From contig JBHGNT010001069.1 in assembly GCA_043228905.1 (NCBI GenBank), positions 1 to 12,424 of the forward strand: a DNA stretch of 12,424 nt, given 5' to 3'. Within the stretch, counting starts at the first letter, position 1. Every line of letters begins with the position of its first letter. The stretch comes from Azolla caroliniana (Eukaryota; Plantae; Polypodiophyta). The notes under the pieces were generated by a model, which was not told the origin of the DNA, ran no database searches, and worked only from the letters and a program-made list of their open reading frames with translations. The position numbers and the translations under genes are program-made. Positions 1 through 12,424 of the stretch are shown here, one piece after another.

Positions 1-55
1 AGTTGGTTCTGTCGAGCTTCTCTGTTGGAAGCGAGCTCGCCATGCCTCTATCCAT
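1..55 (-). CDS. gag: N-terminus of a Ty1/Copia Gag(-Pol) ORF, running off the window start
   Basis: The minus strand from ATG at 55 reads MDRGMASSLPTEKLDRTN. The KLDxTN(Y) pattern is typical of Copia Gag N-termini, and the ORF lies ~60 bp downstream of a PBS. Confidence 0.75.
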   Translation of the reverse strand, partial: MDRGMASSLPTEKLDRTN

Positions 56-115
56 CGTTCTTCTCGTTCTTCTTCGTCAAGCTGTGTCAGCTGTAGAGAG
101 GTTCTCAACCCTCGC

Positions 116-127
116 GCTCTGATACCA
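116..127 (-). other. Primer-binding site (tRNA-iMet) of the minus-strand Copia element
   Basis: Plus-strand GCTCTGATACCA equals minus-strand TGGTATCAGAGC, directly abutting the LTR end (...CTACA). Confidence 0.93.
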
Positions 128-514
128 TGTAGAAAGCAACGTGCAGAAGCAAGTATGAAGACCGAACAGAAGGAAGGAAACTCAGGTTTAATGGAGAGCT
201 TGAGCTTACGCAGTATACTCGGGAGAGACAGAGAGAGAAAACACAAAAAACTATATTCAACAATAATACTCAGTCTGTACATAAGACGTGCTCAGTGAGC
301 ACTTTTATACAAGTCCTAGAAGGACTGACCGAAGTACTGACAGTACTTCAATGCTCATTAAGAGCTCCTACACTACCTCCCAAATATATTCCTCACGGAA
401 TATCTTTCCTAACGACCTCCCGGTGTACGCACTCGGCCTAACCGATCGGTCCCAACCGATCCGGTCCTCGGCTTCTTCAGCCAATCCGGCCGATGTTGAG
501 CTTGTCTCTCAACA
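128..514 (-). mobile_element. 5' LTR (387 bp) of a Copia retrotransposon inserted into another Copia pol
   Basis: The minus strand starts TGTTGAGAGAC at 514 and ends CTACA at 128, followed by the PBS. It contains TATAAAAG (309-302) and a downstream CT-rich tract. Pol homology begins immediately at 515. Confidence 0.85.
302..309 (-). promoter_or_regulatory. TATA box in the Copia LTR
   Basis: Minus-strand TATAAAAG in mid-LTR, upstream of a pyrimidine-rich R/U5 region. Confidence 0.55.
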
Positions 515-1452
515 AAGATGTAGAAAATATCCACAAGTTAAAGGTGGATCTATCTGAGGCCTTTGACATGAAAGATCTAGGTCATGCCAAGCATAGTTTA
601 GGCATGAAAATTACTCGCAATAGGGAATGTGGTAAGTTGTGGCTTTCTCAAGAAAAATACATAGAAAGAGTATTAGAAGGGTTTAATATGCATAATGCAA
701 AACCAGTAAGTACCCCCCTTGCTAGCCATTTTAAATTATGTAGAAAAGACTGTCCACATACCGAGCAAGAGAAAGAAAAGATGTCCTCAATTCCTTACTC
801 TTCAGCGATTGGTTCATTGATGTATGCTATGGTCAGCACAAGGCCAGATATTGCCCATGCCGTTAGTGTTGTAAGTAGATATCTCTCCAATCTGGGTAAG
901 TCTCATTGGGATGTCGTAAAATGGATCTTTCAATATTTAAGAGGTACATCAAAATTATGTTTATGTTTTGGAGATTCTAAACAAACTCTTGAAGGTTTTT
1001 CAGATTCAGATATGGCAGGAGATCTCGATGGGAGAAAATCTACTTCGGCTTACTTATTTACATTTGCAGGGGGAGCCGTGTCATGGCAATCTAAGTTGCA
1101 AAAATGTGTTGCTTTGTCTACAACAGAAGCGGAATATATTGCAGCCACTGAAGCTGCCAAAGAGATGCTATGGTTGAAAAGGTTTGTTTCAGATTTGGGT
1201 TTAAGTCAACTAACTTATGTGATATTTTGTGACAGCCAAAGTGCAATAGATCTAAGCAAGAACTCGATGTACCATTCTCGTACGAAACATATTGATGTAA
1301 GGTATCATTGGTTGCACTCGGCAATTGAAGATCAACTTCTACAACTCAAGAAAATTCACACAAATGACAATGTGGCTAACATGTTGACGAAGGTAGTCTC
1401 TAAACAAAAGCTTGAGCTATGTGTCAAGCTGGCTGGAATGAACAGAAACTAA
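515..1452 (+). pseudogene. pol: Ty1/Copia pol C-terminal part (RT C-terminus + RNase H), Tork/Tnt1-like, disrupted by an insertion
   Basis: Motifs FDMKDLG, LSQEKYIERVL, PYSSAIGSLMYAMVSTRPDIAHAV, FSDSDMAGD, SWQSKLQKCVALSTTEAEY, CDSQSAI and HSRTKHIDVRYH. The frame is open to the stop at 1452. The usual ADMLTK reads ANMLTK. Confidence 0.96.
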
Positions 1453-1483
1453 GTGATTCAATTGAATCTTCTCCTATGTGGCC

Positions 1484-1494
1484 AGAGGGGGAGA
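1484..1494 (+). other. Polypurine tract of the Tork-like Copia element
   Basis: AGAGGGGGAGA ~30 bp after the pol stop and 1 nt before TGTTA. Confidence 0.9.
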
Positions 1495-1495
1495 T

Positions 1496-2101
1496 TGTTA
1501 GGTTTTTTCTGTCCACATTAATAAGTAAATAAAATAGGCCTTGGACGCCCAAAACTTGTATTTTTTTTAAATAGTGTGAAAGGGGTTCACACAAGAAGAC
1601 GTTACATATCTACACTATGTAACACATTCTTTTTTGAGTGTGTCAAAAAGGGGGGAAATGAGCATTTCTCTGCTACGACAGAGAAAAACAGATTTCAAAG
1701 AGCACATACTCTCTTTCTCAACTAATTCCTTCAATCTTTTGGAAGTACACTCAGACATCCGGACATCGCTGCCTCCGTCATCAGCCACGTGCTGTGAGTT
1801 TTGGTGGTTTTTGTGTTCTTTTTGTTGAGTTTTTTATTGTTGAAGAAACATCATATTCCTCAATTGCTTATAGTACTCTAACTTGTTTAGAGTAGAACTT
1901 TGGTGTATCAGTTTTATATTGATAGTGAATTAGTTCTGGACTAGGTCCCGTAGTTTTTACCTCTTTGAGGGTTTTCCACGTTAAAATTTGTGGTGTATTG
2001 TTTATCGATTTGTTGCGTATCTTTCTTGTTTCCCTTTTAAATCTTGCACAACATATTTTCTGTTTTACATAAGTGTTTAAGTGCTACTAAGTTTCGGAAC
2101 A
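1496..2101 (+). mobile_element. LTR of the Tork/Tnt1-like Copia element (3' end at 2101, possibly extending to 2175)
   Basis: Starts TGTTAGG after the PPT and contains a CCCGTAGTTTTT...GGGTTTTCCACGT motif (~1947-1981) resembling U5 of Tork-like LTRs. It ends ...GGAACA before a PBS, and a second CAACA end occurs at 2171-2175. Confidence 0.8.
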
Positions 2102-2103
2102 AG

Positions 2104-2115
2104 TGGTATCAGAGC
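2104..2115 (+). other. Perfect tRNA-iMet PBS following the LTR
   Basis: TGGTATCAGAGC, 2 nt after ...AACA. Confidence 0.85.
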
Positions 2116-2337
2116 AGAGATTGGTGCCTTGATATTGGTGTAGTGTTCTCGGGCCACTTCGTGCTCCCGTCAACAACTAGTGGGTGAATACACCAAACCC
2201 TTTGAAGCTGCCAACACCTAATGGCGCATAGTGGTGAAGAAGAATAGTCCCCTGAAATACTCTCAAACCAAACCCTAGACTCTTAAGTAGGAAAGTAATA
2301 AGAAGAATAAGAAAACTTAAACTCTCATGAAGGTGAG

Positions 2338-2739
2338 TATTATGATCATAATCGTAGCCGTAGTTGTGTATGAAGGGGTGAGGGTTGACTTATCTCAATC
2401 CTACAATGAGAGATAACTTTAGAGTGTTTCATCACTTGGCTATTTTTTATTAAAAAACAACCAAGTGAGAAACACAAACAAGGGGCCTAGGATTTGAGCC
2501 TATAGTAGAAGGCTAGCTACCTTCATGAAGGGGCATCTCTTCTATATAGCTACCTTCATGAAGGCTAGCTACCTCCTCCTTCTTCAAACCACGGTACGAT
2601 CCATGTTTGTACATGGTGGTATGGAACACTTATGGGGACTTGGATCTGTCCACCTTTGTTAGGTGGTCAAGTGGATTGGTGCCCTTTCTTCCTCATTTTC
2701 CCTCTTTAACTTTTCTTAACGCCAATTAAGATTCTAACA
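2338..2739 (+). repeat. 5' LTR of the Gypsy element
   Basis: Aligns with 10588-11179 (TATTATGATCATAATCGTAG vs TGCTACGAGCATAACCGTAA, shared TTATCTCAATCCTACA and AAGGGGCCTAGGA). Ends ATTCTAACA. Confidence 0.9.
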
Positions 2740-2741
2740 AT

Positions 2742-2753
2742 TAGTATCAAAGT
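2742..2753 (+). other. Degenerate tRNA-iMet PBS of the Gypsy element
   Basis: TAGTATCAAAGT vs TGGTATCAGAGC (three transitions), 2 nt after the LTR CA. Confidence 0.75.
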
Positions 2754-3687
2754 GCGGTTAACGTTTTCTTGTGTTGGCTTGTTTCTTTTTATCTTTCTCT
2801 TATAAATCCTGAAGCAATTAACGGAGTGCATTTTCTCGATCCAGGAACAAGCAACTCGAGAACTTCAGTATTCTCCAAACGTTTCTCCTTTCTTTTTATA
2901 ATTAGGTAAATACTTTGTTTCTCTTATATAAGTGAGGGGTTTTTTGAAATGTGGGATTATATGTGGTAGTTCAATCTCATGTTTTATGCCCGATTAGGGT
3001 TTCGTCGTTTAGTCGACAACACGAGGTTTTATTTATTTATATTTAAAAATAAATAAATCCGCATTTATTTTTATTTTTTTTCATAATATTTTTTGTGATT
3101 TATTCATAGTTAATTAGTTAAATGTTTATCTATATTTGTCTATTTTTTAAACTTTTTTTTGGGCCATGGCCTCCTACACCAAGTCTTCACGAGTTGAGAC
3201 CTATTGTGCACATCAATAGGTCATTGCAACCGTCTCACTTCTTGGTGTTGTTCAGGGAAATAAATAAAAAAACAAAAAGAATAAATTCGATATTTTTTAT
3301 TATTAATAAAACACACCACCTCATCCACACCATCATAACTCCATATATAGTTATGGTGGGTGTTTTGTGTATTTTGGGTCCTTGATGTAGGGTGATGTTT
3401 TCTTCGATCTAGGATGCTTTTATTTTTTCCAATGGTTATTTTGATTGTTTTTTTTTCCTTATTATCTATGGTTATTAACTTATTTATTTATTTTCTTGTG
3501 TTTTGCTGACCTACACAATGTATACGTATTAACATACATATCAATATATTGTTATAAATCTATATTTTTAACATAAATAAATAAATAAGTAAAATATATG
3601 GATGCACACTCAATGACAAATCGTTAATATTCTCATATTTGAGAGTATTTATTTATACGGTCGGATATAGAACTTTTCTTGACCACA

Positions 3688-3778
3688 ATACATAAAAATT
3701 GACAAACCATGACCTTACGCACATTTACGAATTCATAAGATGAGTGTGTACGGTCATGGTTTATCAACTTTTATGTAT
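3688..3778. repeat. Imperfect inverted repeat with ~35-bp arms
   Basis: Left arm ATACATAAAAATTGACAAACCATGACCTTACGCAC vs reverse complement of right arm ATACATAAAAGTTGATAAACCATGACCGTACACAC, 4 mismatches. Confidence 0.85.
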
Positions 3779-4199
3779 CTCGAGCCTCGAGGAGCTTCCA
3801 TGGTCTTTTGATAAACACTTTTTTTTTATGTCTCCTCCATGGTTGTTAAAACACCTTAGTGTTACCACAATGTCCTTATTCTTGAAACATTTCTCACATG
3901 TCTAAAGGGGTACAAACATGAGATTTTTTATCGAATGATGTTGCCAAAGCTTGTCCAACACTTCCTAAACATTATTAATTGTTTTCTTTAGACATCTCAA
4001 TGGCACAAATCAATGACAGAAACATGGAATGTGATAATACTCCCATGGCACCAACGACCACATCTATCGGAATTCCACCTTGACTTAGTTTCCTAAGCTT
4101 CAGAAATCTTACAGAGCTCTTGAGTCTTGGGTGTTGGATATGCAGTTTAATTCTTCATTGAAAGACGACAAGCAAGGTGAACCATCCTTGGTTGTGAAA

Positions 4200-4720
4200 C
4201 CTTACATAGGTGATAAGAAGGAACAAATTGACGAAGCTATTATAACTTGCCTTGGTCGTTGGGAGTCACATTTCGAACTTTATCTTAAGTTAGATGATAC
4301 CAAGATTGCCTATGTCAATTGTGAGCTTGGGGGTAAAATCTTTGCTTGCCAATAAGGGCTTTGTAATGCCAAAAAGTTTCTTAGTGCATGGGATCACTTT
4401 GCCAATACATTTAAGAAACTGTTTCTTCAATCTCCCTATGAGACTGAAGCATCACACAACATACTTAACATTTTTGGCCAAAAAATTTCTTCTCTTATGC
4501 CAGGACTTAGTTCCAAAAATGAGGTCCTGAGGTGACAAACAATTTATTGCTTGCTTACTACATGGCATTCCTAACTCTGATTATCCTTAGATAGTTCATG
4601 ATAAGGATCCTAGTGAACTTGAGGAAGCAATAGAAATTTAATTCGTTATGGTCGTATATCATAATAAAGACCATAATAAACCCTTGGGTTCTACACCTAA
4701 TCCATCACAATTTAGTGGGA
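4200..4720 (+). pseudogene. gag: Degenerate Gypsy gag (boundaries approximate)
   Basis: CLGRWESHFELYLKLDDTKIAYVNCELGGK and, further downstream, WDHFANTFKKLF resemble the Ty3 Retrotrans_gag pattern. Located between PBS and protease, with stops and frameshifts. Confidence 0.6.
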
Positions 4721-4762
4721 AATGAAAGAAACTCGATCATGGATTCTTAACTCGCAACTCCA

Positions 4763-5275
4763 GTGACCAATACCTACATGTGGTTAGGACCTAAATATTT
4801 GCTTGGTGCCAACATACTTATCAAAGGGTCTTCAATATATTTTTTATTTGATTTTGGAAGCTCACATGATTTCATCAATGATCCTTTGGTTCAATTGTTG
4901 GAACTTCAGCCAAGTCTACGCGATCACACTTATCAAGTCCATCTAGCAGATGGAGGAATTCAATACATCAATGGAATGATTCATCAATTTCCAATCCATA
5001 TCAATACCTATTTAGAAAAACTAGACTTCTATATTATGAGTCTTCGATCCATTGATGTAATACTTGGTTATCCATGGTTTTTTTAAAAGACTTCCTCTTT
5101 ATCCAATGATTGGGTCAAACATTCAATATTGTTTTCATTAAATAATTCTCAACACTTTATTCAATGTGGCAAACCTTTGTTTGTCTCTACTCTTTTGAGC
5201 ACATCTTTTTTCGATTCTTCTTGTTCTGCAATGTATTGTCGTGTCCTTGACTTTGATCTTCAAATATATAGTACT
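4763..5275 (+). pseudogene. pol: Gypsy aspartic protease (degenerate)
   Basis: LFDFGSSHDFI (usual LxDSGASHNFI), VHLADG and DVILGYPW. The frame breaks at ~5086. Confidence 0.88.
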
Positions 5276-5291
5276 AAGTATATTAAGTGAC

Positions 5292-6345
5292 TTTTATTTA
5301 GTGGAAGAAGAAGTTGAAGTTATGCAACTAGCCTCCCAAAAACCCATTAGGGTCATTGCTAGGTTAGAGAAGAAGTTTTTCCTAGATCCTAACCCTTTTG
5401 TGGCAGACCATGCACGACAACTGTGGGCATTTCAAAGTAAGCCGGTGGAACACCTTAATTGGGACCCGACTAACTATGCATGGCGGTTGGTTGGAAGATC
5501 TTCGGCAAATGAACAAGAAAGTAGAACTCGCCCTTTTTTTTTTAGTACTCTGTGGCCTATGGGAGACGCTTCTTGTTGCAAAGTCATTCCATAAGTCCTT
5601 CTGCACAAAAGTATTGGGAGTCAGGTGCAATATCGCCTCAATATTTGGTAGCTTACTGGAAAAGTTTATGGACTTTACCATGTCTACGGAGAGCCATTTC
5701 TTTTAAGTGGTTATTACTTCATTATGCTTTACCTGTAGGTTGTCATCTAAAAGGACAGGTTCATGATTGTCATTGTGTGTGTTGCTAAGTACAAGAGGAA
5801 ACTTTGAAACATTTGTTTTGGACTTGTATTGCAGTTCAACAATATTGGGGAAGAATACTTAGGATGTTTTCTTGTAAATATAGAGGAGCGATTTTTACAT
5901 GGGGAGTTGTTCTTTGGGGGTCTTTGGATGTCCAAGTATCCATGTATGAGGGGGAGCATTGTGTGGAAGCATTGCATGTGTCGGAGAATAGAATTGAAGC
6001 AATTCTCCCGAATAGTCCGGGTGGTAAATATTTTAAAGAGGCTTTTGTTTGGAATATTGTCTCGATTAATGTTTTATGGGTGTGGTGGACATGTAGGTGC
6101 AACAAGAAATATGAAGGTATCGAGTATAATGTGGTGGATATGATAAAGATGTTCTGGGACAACTTAGTACATACAATTAAGGGAGAGTACGATAATATTA
6201 AAGGGCCAACAAAAAAGGTGTATAAGAAAAGAAGGAAAATTCGTCATACATGGTGACCAATACCTCTATGGTTGGATGGGACACATGATAACTGTTGGAA
6301 TTATGTGCCACCACGATGGTTGTTTCCTCCGCCTAGTCCTTTCTT
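5292..6345 (+). pseudogene. LINE ORF2 C-terminal region including zf-RVT
   Basis: YWKSLW...FKWLLLHYALPVG...CVCC*VQEETLKHLFWTC...YW matches the zf-RVT CCHC pattern. ORFs 5552-5788 and 5804-6256 share a frame with one stop, there is a frameshift at the T-run ~5534-5543, and the frame continues past TGA 6254-6256 as WNYVPPRWLFPPP. Confidence 0.85.
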
Positions 6346-6350
6346 ATTTT

Positions 6351-7054
6351 TTGGGGAATGGTTTTCTCATTTTTTTGGGGAGGATGAGAGGAGACAAATT
6401 GTCAAAAGGTATTATACTAAGATGTAGACATTTGATAGCAGGTTATGTATTGCTGACTATGAGCAAGTTGAATGTGGAAGATAGAAGACTACATTAAGAT
6501 GCATCAATTTTGTGTACGTTGAAAGTGGAATTAGAAGAGTGGTTTGGCTTTGCTTGGGGAAGCCATCCTTATGGGGAAAATCTTTTTGCTTTGTGTTTGT
6601 GACAAAGATGGATGATGTTAAAGGATGTTGAAGCAGTTCTAGGGAGTGACAAGGAGGCTAGATTATGTTTCAATGACTTTTCAAAGTTGGGGAGTGGTTT
6701 TTTCAGTTTTCTGGGGAGGATTAGTGGAGACAAATTGTCAAAAGGTACTGTATTAGGATGTATACATTTGGTACCAGGCCTTATGTATTGCTATTTATAA
6801 GTTGGTTAAATGTGGAAATAAAAGATTGTCTCAAGATGTAGCTACTTTGTGTACACTGAAAGTGGAAATTACAAGAGTGGTTTGGTTTTGCTTGGGGAAG
6901 CCATCCTTATGAGAAAATCTTTTTATTATGGGGCAGAGATGGATGATGTTAAAGGATGTTGAAGCACTTCTAGGGAGTGACAAGAAGGATAGATTATGTT
7001 TCATTTACTTCTCAAATTTGGGGTGTGGTTTTCTCTTTTTTCTGGGGAGGATGA
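6351..7054 (+). repeat. Tandem duplication, ~335-bp unit x ~2.1
   Basis: Units 6351-6686, 6687-7017 and partial 7018-7054. The two full units share GGAGACAAATTGTCAAAAGGTA, GCTTGGGGAAGCCATCCTTATG and GATGGATGATGTTAAAGGATGTTGAAGCA. Confidence 0.92.
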
Positions 7055-7059
7055 CTAGA

Positions 7060-8032
7060 GCAATTTTAGGTGTAGCTAACTATGAGCAGGTTGAAGAAGG
7101 ATGGTGTTTCACAATGCAACTTCTTTGTGTGGAGACAAAGTAATGGAAGATGCTAGAAGGCCGCCAGATGACCCTCATCTTGTGTACTTTACCTATGAGG
7201 AAAGAGGGACTTCCGGTTCGGGCTATGGCTTCTAAAAATGCACTAATTTTAGGATATTACTACCGTGTGGCACTATAGGGGTGGTTAATAGGTACAGAAA
7301 CTTGCAATGGAATCATGAGTATCAGGCTGCTAAAAGACAATATTGAGCTTGGAAAGGCCATGTTGGACATATGCTATATGTGGCTAGGTGGATCATGGTT
7401 CAACAGAGATTTTTTGTGGTTTACTTGGTGATCATACAACAAGGATTGGATGTGGCAGAATGATGTAATTTGAAGAATGGTCTGCATGCTATGGTTCTCC
7501 GAAGTTGTGTGAGCATACAAGTGGTTCATTGTCTTCATGTATACGACGTAGTTTCAAGAGAATGGAGGGAGTATAGAAGCAGGAATTTGGTGGTAACCAA
7601 CAAGATGATTGATGTGGAAAGGGGAAGCATTCTTTTTGTGTTTACAAACATGCATATGAAATGTGGTTGTCTTGAAGAAGCATAGAATGTATTTGATCGC
7701 CTTCAAAATCGAGATTTAGAGGCATGGAATACATTGTTCTCTACCTTGGAAGCTTGTGGTAGCATTCGGTTTTTAGGGTAAAGGAAGATTTATTAGAATT
7801 GCATTGGTGGATATAGCATGCTGAAAAATCATTCTAATGGTTCCAATCTAGGAGTTGCGAGGGCTTGTCTCTGGATGTCACAACTTTTGTTTCTGTTTAT
7901 GGAATAGCTTGTGATTACAAATTATGCTAAACAAGAGCAGGTTGAAGAAGCATTGAAATGGTTCATATCTATGAGTTGTGAGGGCTTGTCTCTGGATGCA
8001 ACTACTTTTGTTGTTGTCAATGGAATAGCTTG
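7060..8032 (+). pseudogene. Fragments of PLS-class pentatricopeptide repeat (PPR) coding sequence
   Basis: Translations include EGLPVRAMASKNALILGY (7204-7257), IMSIRLLKDNIELGKAMLDI..AICG (7312-7384), MHMKCGCLEEA*NVFDRLQNRDLEAWNTLFS (~7650-7742) and ITNYAKQEQVEEALKWFISMSCEGLSLDATTFV (~7914-8012). These follow PPR consensus motifs and are broken by stops and frameshifts. Confidence 0.88.
7836..8032 (+). repeat. Direct repeat of ~76 bp with 121-bp period in the PPR region
   Basis: 7836-7911 vs 7957-8032 share GAGGGCTTGTCTCTGGATG and ATGGAATAGCTTG. Confidence 0.85.
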
Positions 8033-8221
8033 GAATGTGTCTATAGAATAATTTTCAAATTAGTTTTTCCTCTACTTTGGAGTACATAGATTTGTTTCCT
8101 TAACCATTGTCTTATAAAGATGAGTTGGGGAAAAACTATTTTGTATGTTGCAGTTGTTATGACTTTTCTAAAAACTAATGGAAGGATATTTTGGTTTTTA
8201 AAAAAAAGTATATTAAGTGAC

Positions 8222-9276
8222 GGGGATCAATTAACATAATATAAACAACAAGTTCTTGACTCACTGTTAAAAGAGTTTCAAGATATTTTCCCTAGGCTAA
8301 ACATAATATTGACCACCATATTGATCTCATACTAGGTATTCCTCGGTATCGACTTAGTCGAAATGAAGCAAATGAGATTGCTTCGCAACTTAAGGAGTAC
8401 TTAAGGATGGGTCATATACGTTATAGTAAATCCCCTTCTTGTGCACCAGTCTTTTTGGTCAAGAAAAAAAAATGGATCGTGGAGACTATGTATTAATCAT
8501 CACCGTTTCAATAAAGTCTTGCCTTGCACAGATGATTTGGTATATTGTCTAGGAGTTAAATCATTTTCAAAGATTGATTTGAGAACTAGTTATCATTAGA
8601 TACGAATTGTCAAAAATGATATTCAAACAACATTCCATATGCGTTATGACCATTACGAGTTTCTTTGAGAACTAGTTATCATTAGATACGAATTGTCAAA
8701 AATGATATTCAAACAACATTCCGTATGCGTTATGACCATTACGAGTTTCTAGTTGTACCTTTTGGTTTGATTAATGCTCCAACTACATTCCAACAAGAAG
8801 TGAATGATATGTTTTGATATTAACTCAAATAGTTCATTGTTGTTTTCTTGGATGATGTTCTTATTTATAGTTGTCACTAGACGAACATAGTGCACACATC
8901 TATTTTGTCCTTCAAACATTCACGCCATGATATAGAAATGTGAATTTTTTTTAAAGTCAATTATATATCTTGGACATTTGGCCACTAAATAGGATGTGCA
9001 AATTGATCTTTCTCGAATAGAGAAAGTCAAACTAAGGTCTACTCCACGAATCATTTGAGAGTTATGTTGATTTTTAGGTTTTGTGGGTGTTTTGCAAAAA
9101 GCTATTCGTAATAACTCCTAATTGGCGACATCATTTAAAAACCTTTTAGAACGTCAAATGCGGCAAGTCTACAAAACCAATCCCTCGGAAGGATCATCTA
9201 GATGAGTCATTTCAAATACTCAAAGAACATGTACATTAGGTCCCTTCACTTCTTTTACCAGACTCATCTAAACCGT
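8222..9276 (+). pseudogene. pol: Gypsy reverse transcriptase (degenerate)
   Basis: LLKEFQDIFP, YRLSRNE, SKSPSCAPVFLVKKK, GSWRLCI, FSKIDLRTSYH, PFGLINAPTTFQ, VFLDDVLIYS (FLDD 8845-8856), YLGH and PSLLLPDSSKP, with many stops and frameshifts. Confidence 0.93.
8579..8750 (+). repeat. Near-perfect 86-bp tandem duplication inside RT
   Basis: 8579-8664 and 8665-8750 differ at one site (A8637 / G8723). Confidence 0.95.
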
Positions 9277-9579
9277 CGTCGCGAAAATGCTCGCGTGCGT
9301 GTGCTACTTGAGCAGGACCACTTGGGTCTCAAACTAAGGAGGACATTTGATGACCTTAAAAGACAATGATGTGGATGTTTGAGTCGAGGAAGACAATGTC
9401 ACACAGTTTTGCTTTGTGACATGCACGAAACCATTGGCTTAAAACCATGGTTTTGTGCACACGGTTTTGTATTATCGTTTCATATGTAATGTGAATATGA
9501 AAAGTAAATACATAAAGTTTAACGTGTATGATTATAGCCCTAGTGGTAAATCAATTCTCTTCTACATTGGAGGTACAAG

Positions 9580-9776
9580 TAGGGATCGGCAATGGCTCGG
9601 CTCAAGCCTAAACCGTTTGGCTTAGCCGGCTTGAAAACGGCTTAGCGGCTTAGTAGCTCGTCTTGACTCGGTTTGAGCCTCGCCAAACCGGCTCAAGCCG
9701 GCTAAGCCGTTTAGAAATTTTAGAGAGAGAGGTGGAGAAAGAGAAAGAGAGGGAGGGAGGGAGACAATAGACAAGG

Positions 9777-9843
<67 letters not shown>

Positions 9844-9993
9844 TTCCAAACCGGTTTAGCCTAAACCGGTTTGTGAATTGGTTCGGTTCGGTTCGGTTCA
9901 GGTTTGAGATCCCCGAAACGGTTTAGGCTTAGCCGGTTTGGCTTGGATCAGGCCAAACCGGCTAAGCCTAAACCGAACCGTTGCCGATCCCTA
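9580..9993. mobile_element. Non-autonomous hAT (Ac/Ds-like) MITE, 414 bp
   Basis: TIRs TAGGGATCGGCAATGGCTCGG / TAGGGATCGGCAACGGTTCGG (19 of 21 match), a perfect 8-bp TSD GGTACAAG (9572-9579 and 9994-10001), and many subterminal AAACCG/AAGCCG motifs. Confidence 0.95.
9781..9840 (+). repeat. (GA)30 microsatellite
   Basis: Uninterrupted GA dinucleotide run of 60 bp, preceded by a degenerate purine tract from ~9722. Confidence 0.98.
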
Positions 9994-10230
9994 GGTACAA
10001 GGTTCAAATCTTGCTTGCACCACTCTTTTTACGCACTCAATCTCACTAGGCCCTAGGTTTGTTTTTATATTTTGTGTAATGAACACCTAAACACACATCA
10101 CACGTGCACATTAACGTGCTAAAATACATGTGTAACCACCACTCCTTTCATATGTGTACATATTGCACCTTCTCGATTTTGTCCGTTCCACACGATTTTC
10201 ACACCGTTGCCGAAAATCTTCATGACATTG

Positions 10231-10515
10231 TATGAGGTCAAGATTGATGCTAGTGATTATGTCGTAGGGACAATTGTATATTAAGATGCCAAACCTGTTG
10301 CATTTGAGAGTAAGAAATTTACTCTAACTCAGTGCAATACTCAATTCGAGAAAAATAGCTATTTGCAATAATATATGCACTAAGTCATGGAGAAATTAGT
10401 TGTATGGAAATCATTTTGTGGTAACTACGGAGCACCAAGTCCTTCAAATATTTTTGTGACCAAGAAGGCCTCATGGGTTGTAAGACACGATGGGTAGAAC
10501 TCATTCAAAACTTTC
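10231..10515 (+). pseudogene. pol: Gypsy RNase H (degenerate)
   Basis: YEVKIDASDYVVG, PVAFESKKF, YSIREK*LFAIIYALKSWR, LYGNHFVVTT and RWVELIQNF. Confidence 0.9.
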
Positions 10516-10573
10516 AAAAGATGCTCTTAAAACAAAATTTCTTCACTTTTCATGGCAACGGGTACAATCTTTT

Positions 10574-10585
10574 GGAGAGGGAGAG
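10574..10585 (+). other. Polypurine tract of the Gypsy element
   Basis: GGAGAGGGAGAG, 2 nt before the 3' LTR TG. Confidence 0.88.
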
Positions 10586-10587
10586 TA

Positions 10588-11179
10588 TGCTACGAGCATA
10601 ACCGTAACTGTAGTTGTGGGCTAATTTGTAATGATGAAGGGTGAGGATTGATTTATCTCAATCCTACAGTGAGATCTAACTTCAAAGTGTTTATCACTTG
10701 GCTACTTTTTATAAAAGAAAACAACCAAAGTGAGAAACACACACAAGGGGCCTAGGAATTGAGCCTATAAAAGAAGGCTAGTTAGCTTCATCAAGTTATA
10801 TCGTACATTAGGATATAACTTCGAAGTGTTTATCACTTGGCTACTTTTTATTAAAAAAACAACCAAGAGAGAAACACACACAAAGGGCCTAGGAATTGAG
10901 CCTATAGAAGAAGGCTAGTTGCCTTCATCAAGGGGCATCTCTTTTCTTTATTGTTTTGTGAAAGAGACTTTGAGAGTGTGGAAGAGCTGTAACTTCGTAC
11001 ACATGTGCCTCCTTCTTTAACCCCAAGGCACAGTTCATGTCTATAGACGGTGGTGTGGGACACCAATGGGGGACTTAGATCTATCCCTCACCTTTGTTAG
11101 GGGTGGTTGAGTGGACCGGCACCCTTTCTTCCTTATTTTCCCTCCTTAATTTTCCTAGACATTAATTAACATTCTAATA
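10588..11179 (+). repeat. 3' LTR of the Gypsy element, with an internal ~122-bp duplication
   Basis: Homologous to 2338-2739. Segment 10673-10795 is repeated at 10812-10932. Ends ATTCTAATA (CA to TA). Confidence 0.9.
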
Positions 11180-11589
11180 ATGAGGAAAAATAAATCCTAG
11201 CTGAAAAAAAAATTAAAAAAAACTCATAAAACCACAAAACCATAATGGTGCACACCAAAACTCAAAATGAAATAAACCCTCTTTTTATATGTAGAGAAAG
11301 AGGCACCTATTTTTGGTATTAAATGTATTTCTTCCTTTTTTTCTTCGAAAATGCAAAAAAGAAATAATTCCTAAAGACGTGTTAACAAAGATTTAAACTC
11401 CATACTTCTTATACATAGTTAATGACCCTAACCACTAGTTTATTTGCTTTTGGAACCTCCAACCTCCTTGGTCATAATGGAAACTTATAGAGACTTCCGA
11501 AGCATGCACTTTCAAAAAAATTGGAATGTTCTAAGAACTTCTAGACTATGCATGCACATGAAGTGCTTAGGAACACGTGTAAATACAGT

Positions 11590-11619
11590 TGTTCACCTTG
11601 ATCTCAATCAAGGTGAACA
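11590..11619. repeat. Perfect 13-bp hairpin
   Basis: TGTTCACCTTGAT-CTCA-ATCAAGGTGAACA. Confidence 0.9.
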
Positions 11620-11729
11620 CAATTTATGGAATCATAAGTACAATCCAATAAGTTCTTTCTCCCTCAATATTTTGTCTCTTGTCTCACATTCCTTGCCTCC
11701 GTTTTGGTCTATTCTAATTATCTGTGACA

Positions 11730-12175
11730 TTCATGTTGTACCAGTTGGATATTGGGTGGGATGCATTTGTAATAGTGTGCACACTTGATTCAAGAATCCT
11801 TGAAATTGTATATGAGTACCATCAAACTTCACTAGTAGCCATCAATAAGATATTGGGTGGGATGAATTTGTAATAATAGACACACATGATTCAAGAATTA
11901 TTGAAATTATGATTGAGTACCATCAAATTGATCTTGGTTTCTTTTGGGGAATTTTGTGCTTCCAAGTCTTATTATTGCAAAGTCCCTAGCGTTACTTCAA
12001 GTTGGTGAATCCTTTGAGTTAATCCCTCAAGTTGAGCTTTCTCAACTAACAATTCTTATACATCCTTGCGATACCTTTGATTCTCTTGCTCTAAGGCCAT
12101 GAACTTGGTCGTATTCTAGCTAGTAACAACTTGTATACACTCTAGTTCACTTATTGTTGCTTTGGTTATGAGAAC
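11730..12175 (-). pseudogene. gag: Degenerate N-terminal gag of a second Ty3/Gypsy element (possibly Tcn1-like)
   Basis: The minus strand reads a coiled-coil-like KFMALEQENQRYRKDV*ELLVEKAQLEGLTQRIHQLE, then PKETKI, then FDGTQS*FQ*FLNHVCLLLQIHPTQY and KFDGTHIQFQGFLNQVCTLLQMHPTQYP. This fits the P-x-KFDG...F..F..Q gag pattern. Confidence 0.75.
11748..11927. repeat. Diverged direct repeat of 79 bp with 101-bp period
   Basis: 11748-11826 vs 11849-11927 share GATATTGGGTGGGATG, TGATTCAAGAAT and TGAGTACCATCAAA. Confidence 0.9.
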
Positions 12176-12424
12176 ATAGAGTGAGGATTTCTTCAAGAAA
12201 TAAAAAATAAAAAATTCTAATTCAAACTATCATGTTCATAGTCGAGAATCGAATCAAGGAAGAGAATACAAAGAGAGAAATAAGAGACGAATGGCAGGGT
12301 CATATCTAAGAACAAAATTATTGAAGAAGAACGAAATGTATTAATAACAACTAACAACTAACAAGATACAAGAACATGTTGAAGGCTAACGTTGAACTAG
12401 TATGGTGCATCAATATTACAACAT

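Follow-up and report, generated by a model that had tools for sequence, protein, structure and literature searches.

Human L1 elements can carry host sequence along by 3' transduction, in which sequence 3' of open reading frame 2 (ORF2) moves within one target-site duplication (TSD) and with a poly(A) tail, the transduced DNA lying downstream of the element's own end and tail. The process is defined in PMC13317346. Drosophila telomeric elements of the non-LTR type (LTR, long terminal repeat) carry captured host genes (nxf2 in TART-A; piwi, aub and CG12520; PMC7785250, PMC13534243); these fragments are 140-235 nt long, stem from at least nine independent captures, and in the case of nxf2 lie in the 3' untranslated region (UTR) of TART-A. 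Double template jumps by long interspersed nuclear elements (LINEs) are documented (PMC2104539, PMC4476161), and the resulting chimeras include U6/L1 and the tripartite WEIRD/Mg-SINE/MGL. Stringent 3'-end recognition has been described for some plant L1s (PMC3472496). Plant gene capturers comprise the maize LTR element Bs1, miniature terminal-repeat retrotransposons (TRIMs), Pack-MULE and Pack-CACTA elements and Helitrons (PMC13317346, PMC13477047), and expansions of pentatricopeptide repeat (PPR) genes in hornworts, lycophytes and a moss have been attributed to retroposition, linked mainly to flanking LTRs (PMC13386178). Here we describe a LINE insertion carrying PPR-like sequence in 12,424 nucleotides of the fern Azolla caroliniana (assembly GCA_043228905.1, contig JBHGNT010001069.1, positions 1 to 12,424, hereafter the window), together with 24 related loci found in a scan of metagenome contigs.

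The feature is real. The anatomy of the insert, its membership of a family, a terminus that the family shares, host cargo that differs between relatives and lies in sense, and one lost intron are all direct observations. How the cargo was acquired is weighed further below.

Anatomy of the insert

The insert and its surroundings contain the following features.

2390-11184, plus strand: Ty3/gypsy remnant hosting the insert, with LTR-like stretches at 2390-2744 and 10653-11184, protease at 4808-5089 and reverse transcriptase (RT) at 8728-8886
5276-5291, plus strand: left TSD, 16 bp, exact repeat of 8206-8221
5292-6349, plus strand: 3' end of an L1-clade ORF2, 5'-truncated, 81-93% identical over ~1058 nt to 17 of the 24 related loci
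5648-5848, plus strand: zf-RVT domain (PF13966, E 2.3e-7; score 31.8 bits, cut-off 27.5)
6350-7060, plus strand: tandem repeat of the 3' UTR, 2.1 units of ~331-338 bp (Tandem Repeats Finder, TRF), also found in loci L001, L003, L004 and L005
7066-7124, plus strand: start of a P-type PPR motif, aligning to 7926-7964 with 0 of 200 shuffles as high
7125-8040, plus strand: degenerate PPR cargo of the PLS type (own P, L and S models, frameshift-aware profile, Pfam)
7204-7257 (S/P), 7647-7742 (S and P), 7731-7769 (L, marginal), 7817-7897 and 7914-8018 (P/L), plus strand: PPR remnants
8136-8199, plus strand: conserved family terminus, with a TTTGTA-type box, an invariant CTAATGGAAG box at 8175-8184 and then a U-rich run
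8200-8207, plus strand: short poly(A) tail of 8 A, two of them common with the TSD (from the sequence)
8206-8221, plus strand: right TSD, exact repeat, its junction bridged by a contig of run X2

Apart from the TSD, AAGTATATTAAGTGAC, the end regions of the insert have no exact repeat of more than 8 nt in common, and the length of the TSD was reached by only 1 of 2000 dinucleotide resamples. At the 3' end the last two A of the A run are also counted in the TSD, leaving a short tail; the 5' end of the insert falls within ORF2, where 1 nt matches the end of the TSD. The X2 contig that bridges the right junction between LINE and flank is 1053 nt long and covers 8169-8600, and in three of four runs contigs join across the insertion, linking 5195 to 8209, 5211 to 8209 and 5270 to 8247. 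Pfam matches to a protease on the left (E 6e-7) and to an RT on the right (E 2e-8) belong to the Ty3/gypsy flanks, and the LINE landed in this remnant between the two. The preliminary description of the locus had placed the LINE end and the PPR sequence inside one 16-bp TSD with an A tail and held that both moved as one unit, and this is borne out: within the insert the PPR part shows neither a TSD nor an A run of its own. A later insertion of PPR sequence into the LINE was considered and rejected, as there is no separate TSD or tail.

In the window copy, ORF2 is frameshifted near a T run at 5534-5543, and the alignment to relatives reaches 6349 rather than 6256; the stop at 6254-6256 is premature. 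Because 30 of its 66 mismatches to L006 are G>A or C>T, the insert reads as the probable decay of an old methylated copy. ORF1, truncated away in the window copy, matches DUF4283 in three of four relatives and zf-CCHC in two of four (E 1e-3 to 7e-3, all under the curated cut-offs). The ORF2 of L009 comprises an APE endonuclease, RT and zf-RVT and that of L002 RT and zf-RVT, and the best PDB match of the family ORF2 is human L1 ORF2p (E 3e-55), against E 1e-19 for R2. With its 5' truncation, poly(A) tail and a TSD within the 7-20-bp range, the element is, as judged from these sequence traits, a plant-type L1-clade LINE. The seven long loci, which represent both ORF2 clades, all have the same final 13 nt ahead of the ORF1 stop and the same stop codon (L002:1923-1938 and equivalents), possibly a signal for ORF2 translation. 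No exact complement of at least 11 nt pairs the ORF1/ORF2 junction with the 3' region in any of seven loci.

For the PPR motifs, P, L and S models were derived from the 150 best database PPR matches, which together supplied 215 triplets. The frame at 7464-8039 exceeds the Pfam cut-offs for PPR_2 (32.1 against 30) and PPR (27.2 against 25); our own models add an S motif at 7647-7718 (37.6 bits) and a P motif at 7914-8000 (23.9 bits), and a frameshift-aware profile adds 7204-7257 (25.9) and 7817-7897 (24.9), with shuffle maxima of 18.8-20.3. The L match at 7731-7769 is marginal (8.5 bits; best of 100 shuffles, 8.8). The motif order is preserved as S-P and P-L remnants, the L match alone being marginal. 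On the minus strand of the insert there is no Pfam family, and the custom models give one weak match each (5.0 bits; 19.3), within the shuffle range. Thus the PLS motifs claimed earlier are real, but of the ~1.9 kb said to contain them only about 7070-8040 is demonstrably PPR-like. A 121-bp duplication lies within this cargo (7815-8032). Because stops and frameshifts occur throughout the PPR part and there is no E or DYW family match, it is a fragment, not a gene. The cargo, non-coding in this copy, is most likely a passenger. Its protein identity to the 150 best database PPRs, a set without the organism's own donor, is 26-41%; among nine of the top matches that were looked up, four come from ferns (Adiantum, Ceratopteris) and two from a lycophyte, in keeping with a fern host.

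The ~700 bp ahead of the PPR motifs (6350-7054) are 2.1 copies of a 331-bp unit in TRF and abut ORF2 through an internal deletion relative to L001. Read as a decayed PLS triplet, the unit has a protein score matched by 7 of 100 shuffles, and in comparisons with PPR at the DNA level 38, 58 and 125 of 200 shuffles score as high, neither result being significant. In several contigs of run X1, PPR S-motif sequence is joined to the opening bases of the clade-A 3' UTR (L004:7130-7147), a hint that even the UTR's oldest part may be PPR-derived.

One terminus and a changing cargo

The LINE belongs to a family and is not a one-off, in keeping with the family option of the preliminary description. Of the 24 loci, six have an open ORF2 of 1468-1488 codons, although these may be assembler averages of many copies. 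A DNA tree of ORF2 within the family has two well-supported clades that are ~82% identical. In run X1, summed contig depth over the insert is 1180-9620, against 40-57 for single contigs, with its peak at the 3' end; such depth is a rough guide and not a copy number, and PPR genes raise it at PPR-like stretches. In three of four runs, 23-28 contigs continue beyond 8207 into unlike sequence (agreement 0.42-0.44). The run search listed no RNA run with the window stretch, a result that bears in no way on expression.

A terminus of ~65 nt is present in the window and in 9 of the 24 loci, followed by an A run and then by ten different flanks, and the CTAATGGAAG box is unchanged in all ten of these sequences, across both ORF2 clades. 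In the 15 other loci, which lack the box, the contigs end or exit the element earlier. A stem-loop in the terminus has no support (-1.28 kcal/mol, no covariation). In L003 the A tail is followed by a copia integrase frame (L003:3910-4914), and that copy, too, lies within an LTR element.

The slot that separates the ORF2 stop from the shared terminus differs in content among relatives. L001 carries a PIP5K piece (E 2e-4) and then the last 250 nt of the window insert, with which it has 7951-8207 in common at 85%. L003 begins with PIP5K as L001 does and joins, at a CAGG microhomology, a piece of the window PPR (7580-7715) that is 77% identical. A second, younger PPR is found in L004 and L006, and L004 also holds RPL10A (ribosomal L1/L10a, E 1e-5). 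In L009, L012, L015 and L020, cullin (E 3e-7 in L012, E 3e-5 in L020) comes after a third PPR; L019 has this third PPR with an open PLS PPR stretch of 288 codons, and L018 has no cargo at all, its terminus directly following ORF2. In the junction alignment, L001, L003, L004 and L005 diverge to other cargo at the point equal to window 7124. The same cargo recurs in separate assemblies: the PIP5K start in L001, L003, L004 and L005, cullin in L009, L010, L012, L015 and L020, and the second PPR in L004 and L006. All recognised cargo is in sense, and the minus strand has no Pfam match in the UTRs of the five relatives scanned or in the window insert. Pfam missed the PIP5K of L003, which was recognised by DNA alignment, and the PPR of L006, which was recognised by the custom models; the early-UTR plus strands of L001, L004, L006, L012, L019 and L007 were scanned with the custom PPR models alone. 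Further UTR pieces, at L001:4299-4390, L004:8650-8760 and 8930-9130, and L006:2500-3100, have no Pfam match and are possibly more captured mRNA.

The 3' UTR is therefore a changing mosaic that differs between subfamilies, and since it also holds pieces of PIP5K, RPL10A and cullin, the proposal of a stable PPR-derived 3' UTR is not supported. The PPRs themselves appear to be separate captures, because the window PPR has only a weak DNA likeness to that of L019 (0 of 200 shuffles as high, one S motif) and no clear one to that of L004 (9 of 200). Dispersal of PPR motifs, as proposed, is seen for broken fragments downstream of the ORF2 stop only; one relative, L019, has the open stretch of 288 codons.

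Possible routes of capture, and the neighbourhood of the insert

We favour, with somewhat better than even confidence, the reading that the insert is a decayed copy of an L1-clade family that gains host pieces in its 3' UTR by template switching during reverse transcription and then amplifies them. The ORF2 protein (ORF2p) would begin target-primed reverse transcription at the element's own terminus, and this would account for the terminus outlasting everything upstream. The enzyme would then switch from LINE RNA onto a host mRNA and return to LINE RNA, frequently where short microhomologies occur, so that a spliced host fragment of 100-900 nt stays in the element. A chimera retaining both ORFs and the terminus could found a subfamily, and later jumps, deletions and cryptic splicing would add, replace and erode cargo. 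The recurrence of PPRs probably stems from the abundance of PLS-PPR mRNAs in ferns, and resident PPR sequence would steer further jumps by homology. As in template-switch chimeras, the foreign sequence is fused in sense and has neither a TSD nor a tail of its own.

Several observations point to passage through RNA and to subsequent amplification. The PIP5K piece of L001 is without a 167-nt GT-AG intron that is present in the homologous sequence of L005. The RPL10A piece of L004 (8764-8927) matches continuously, with 4 of 164 nt differing, a contig from run X21, a run only guessed to be RNA, while the single-copy DNA contigs of runs X1 and X2 match it only from 8791, starting at AG as at an intron end. 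From this AG boundary the piece is likely without its intron, the intron letters themselves being unseen. L012 and L015 hold a 141-nt GT...AG piece, and exactly this piece is lacking in L010 and L020. Across the cargo, then, PIP5K has lost an intron relative to its homologue, RPL10A has apparently done so and L005 retains introns; PPR donors may be intronless anyway. In run X11 (organism C), L004 is present nearly identically, with a depth of 318-864 over 8475-9104 against 21-26 for single contigs, whereas organism A (runs X1 and X2) has only gene-level depth at RPL10A and a joint that skips 8709-9129. Because of this difference between repeat-level and gene-level depth, the RPL10A-bearing cargo reads as a recent, lineage-specific capture that was then amplified.

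A number of points weigh against template switching as the source. The homologue used to score the PIP5K intron loss is ~77% identical and not the true donor. In L005:3326-4662 the LINE UTR continues straight, with one frameshift, into an intron-containing PIP5K; the joint could reflect chimeric assembly, a capture intermediate, one jump onto pre-mRNA or a capture at the DNA level. Past ~9486, L004 has single-copy depth in X11 and probably follows a PPR gene, and PPR genes themselves contribute depth at its PPR-like stretch, 9210-9419. The TSD search in the nine terminus-bearing relatives gave only chance 9-12-mers, and no Logan contig covers the whole insert. The 24 relatives all come from short-read metagenome contigs and may stem from more than one species; at least L002, L004, L005 and L016 exit the element into other sequence, and some of these joins may be chimeric. 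Microhomology was noted at the few junctions examined, without a statistical test. Sense orientation and splicing are equally expected from read-through, and in mammals template switching is reported mostly for U6-type small nuclear RNAs (snRNAs; PMC4476161).

A broader proposal, for which our confidence stays somewhat short of even, would make this a Pack-LINE: an autonomous fern L1-clade family with a stringent terminus, whose 3' UTR would serially capture and amplify pieces of spliced host mRNA through double template jumps. Hopping between PLS-PPR transcripts under the guidance of homology would let it shuffle the motifs of RNA-editing factors and give rise to trans-acting small RNAs aimed at young donors. 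Small interfering RNAs (siRNAs) against host PPR genes, as suggested earlier, are unlikely for the window copy because it has only 26-41% protein identity to database PPRs; for younger cargo such as RPL10A, targeting is plausible, given the difference of just 4 in 164 nt from the RNA-type contig.

Among the alternatives, the one that survives best is a modified 3' transduction, which we nonetheless regard as unlikely. LINE copies without their end, in or before host genes, would read into exons, and the spliced transcript would be mobile only if it ended at a short copy of the terminus downstream; serial rounds would build the mosaic. This route accounts for sense orientation and splicing and for the UTR of L005 running into an intron-containing PIP5K, and it has been proposed for TART-A and nxf2 (PMC7785250). 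Depth is highest at the terminus region of the insert, so that short terminus copies are probably common. However, each of at least six donors would need a truncated LINE and a copy of the terminus around it, pieces of unrelated genes adjoin over spans of a few hundred bases that hold no remnant of intergenic or LINE-tail sequence, and cargo is replaced at internal points (window 7124; the TTCATA point that separates L019 from L020).

It is improbable, to a greater degree, that the capture took place in DNA, with double-strand break repair or gene conversion placing cDNA or gene pieces into resident LINEs of which the mobile ones spread. Microhomology junctions and internal deletions are also signatures of repair, and the introns kept in L005 would fit, yet the recognised cargo is all exonic and in sense, with no minus-strand Pfam match in six regions, and two pieces (PIP5K and RPL10A) look spliced. 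We think it slightly more improbable still that one ancient PPR capture, that of the window, is real and that most other cargo diversity comes from chimeric low-coverage assemblies. The contigs come from de Bruijn assembly of repeats, and several can be seen to run into single-copy genes; against this, the same cargo appears in separate assemblies, has degenerated compared with genes and leads back to the terminus, and the cargo of L004 reaches repeat-level depth in the independent run X11.

Classical 3' transduction, in which a PPR gene in the flank was moved along on one occasion, would put LINE and PPR inside one TSD, as seen, but it is hardly credible, given that no LINE terminus box or A run precedes the PPR part, that the terminus behind it is family-wide and that parts of the PPR cargo recur in L001 and L003 with other flanks. 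Hence 3' transduction in the L1 sense, the mechanism first suggested, does not describe this insert, because its cargo lies upstream of a terminus common to ten sequences.

Outside the LINE, the window holds traces of further elements. The stretch 442-2114 holds a copia RT/RNase H frame (RVT_2, E 4e-11), a purine tract (~1484-1495) and an LTR that begins at ~1497; downstream of that LTR, TGGTATCAGAGC at ~2103-2114, which we take to be a tRNA-Met-type primer site, suggests a tandem or recombined element. Within 116-510, a reverse-strand primer site (~116-127) stands beside an LTR-like stretch, and the copia RT seems to be broken up by an LTR element on the minus strand. A miniature inverted-repeat transposable element (MITE) at 9580-9993 has TAGGG terminal inverted repeats, an exact 8-bp TSD (9572-9579/9994-10001) and an (AG)n run inside; from the TSD length it is presumably hAT-like. 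The gypsy RT holds a near-perfect 86-bp tandem duplication (8578-8750) and the right LTR of the remnant a 137-bp duplication (10673-10932). A repeat of 101-bp period lies at 11748-11927, and a hairpin with 35-bp arms at 3688-3778.

Comparison with known systems

In the literature covered, mostly without subscription papers or supplements, where repeat libraries might describe this family, we found no plant LINE family with serial gene capture in the 3' UTR, and the available portion of a 2026 review (PMC13317346) includes no LINE case among plant gene capture. With a LINE family whose cargo is datable and specific to subfamilies and whose ORFs are apparently intact, LINE switching onto mRNAs would become testable genome-wide. 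Such a family also names a candidate enzyme for handling PPR mRNAs, and its cargo-bearing UTRs would inflate counts of PPR genes and pseudogenes in annotations.

As in human L1 transduction, host sequence 3' of ORF2 moves within one TSD with a poly(A) tail, but here the cargo lies upstream of a conserved terminus. As in the plant gene capturers, a mobile element holds a mosaic of fragments from several host genes; as far as they are described in the available texts, those carriers are LTR or DNA elements. The maize LINE1-1_ZM (PMC3472496) is likewise an L1-clade element with a conserved 3'-end sequence. Its terminus forms a solid RNA structure, whereas the terminus of the window family has sequence boxes and no supported fold. 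With the template-switch chimeras the family has in common the fusion of different RNAs in sense within a single TSD-bounded insertion. Those chimeras mostly occur as single insertions of a pseudogene-like kind, in which the foreign RNA lies 5' of the LINE 3' end, while the window family holds foreign mRNA inside elements that keep both ORFs and apparently amplify it.

In the Drosophila telomeric system, host gene fragments carried by LINE-type elements have likewise become fixed and amplified. The fly elements are telomeric, carry mostly genes of the PIWI-interacting RNA (piRNA) pathway and have piRNA targeting shown for them. The window family, known here from sequence alone, is a dispersed plant L1-clade lineage with mosaics of unrelated genes and repeated capture of PPRs.

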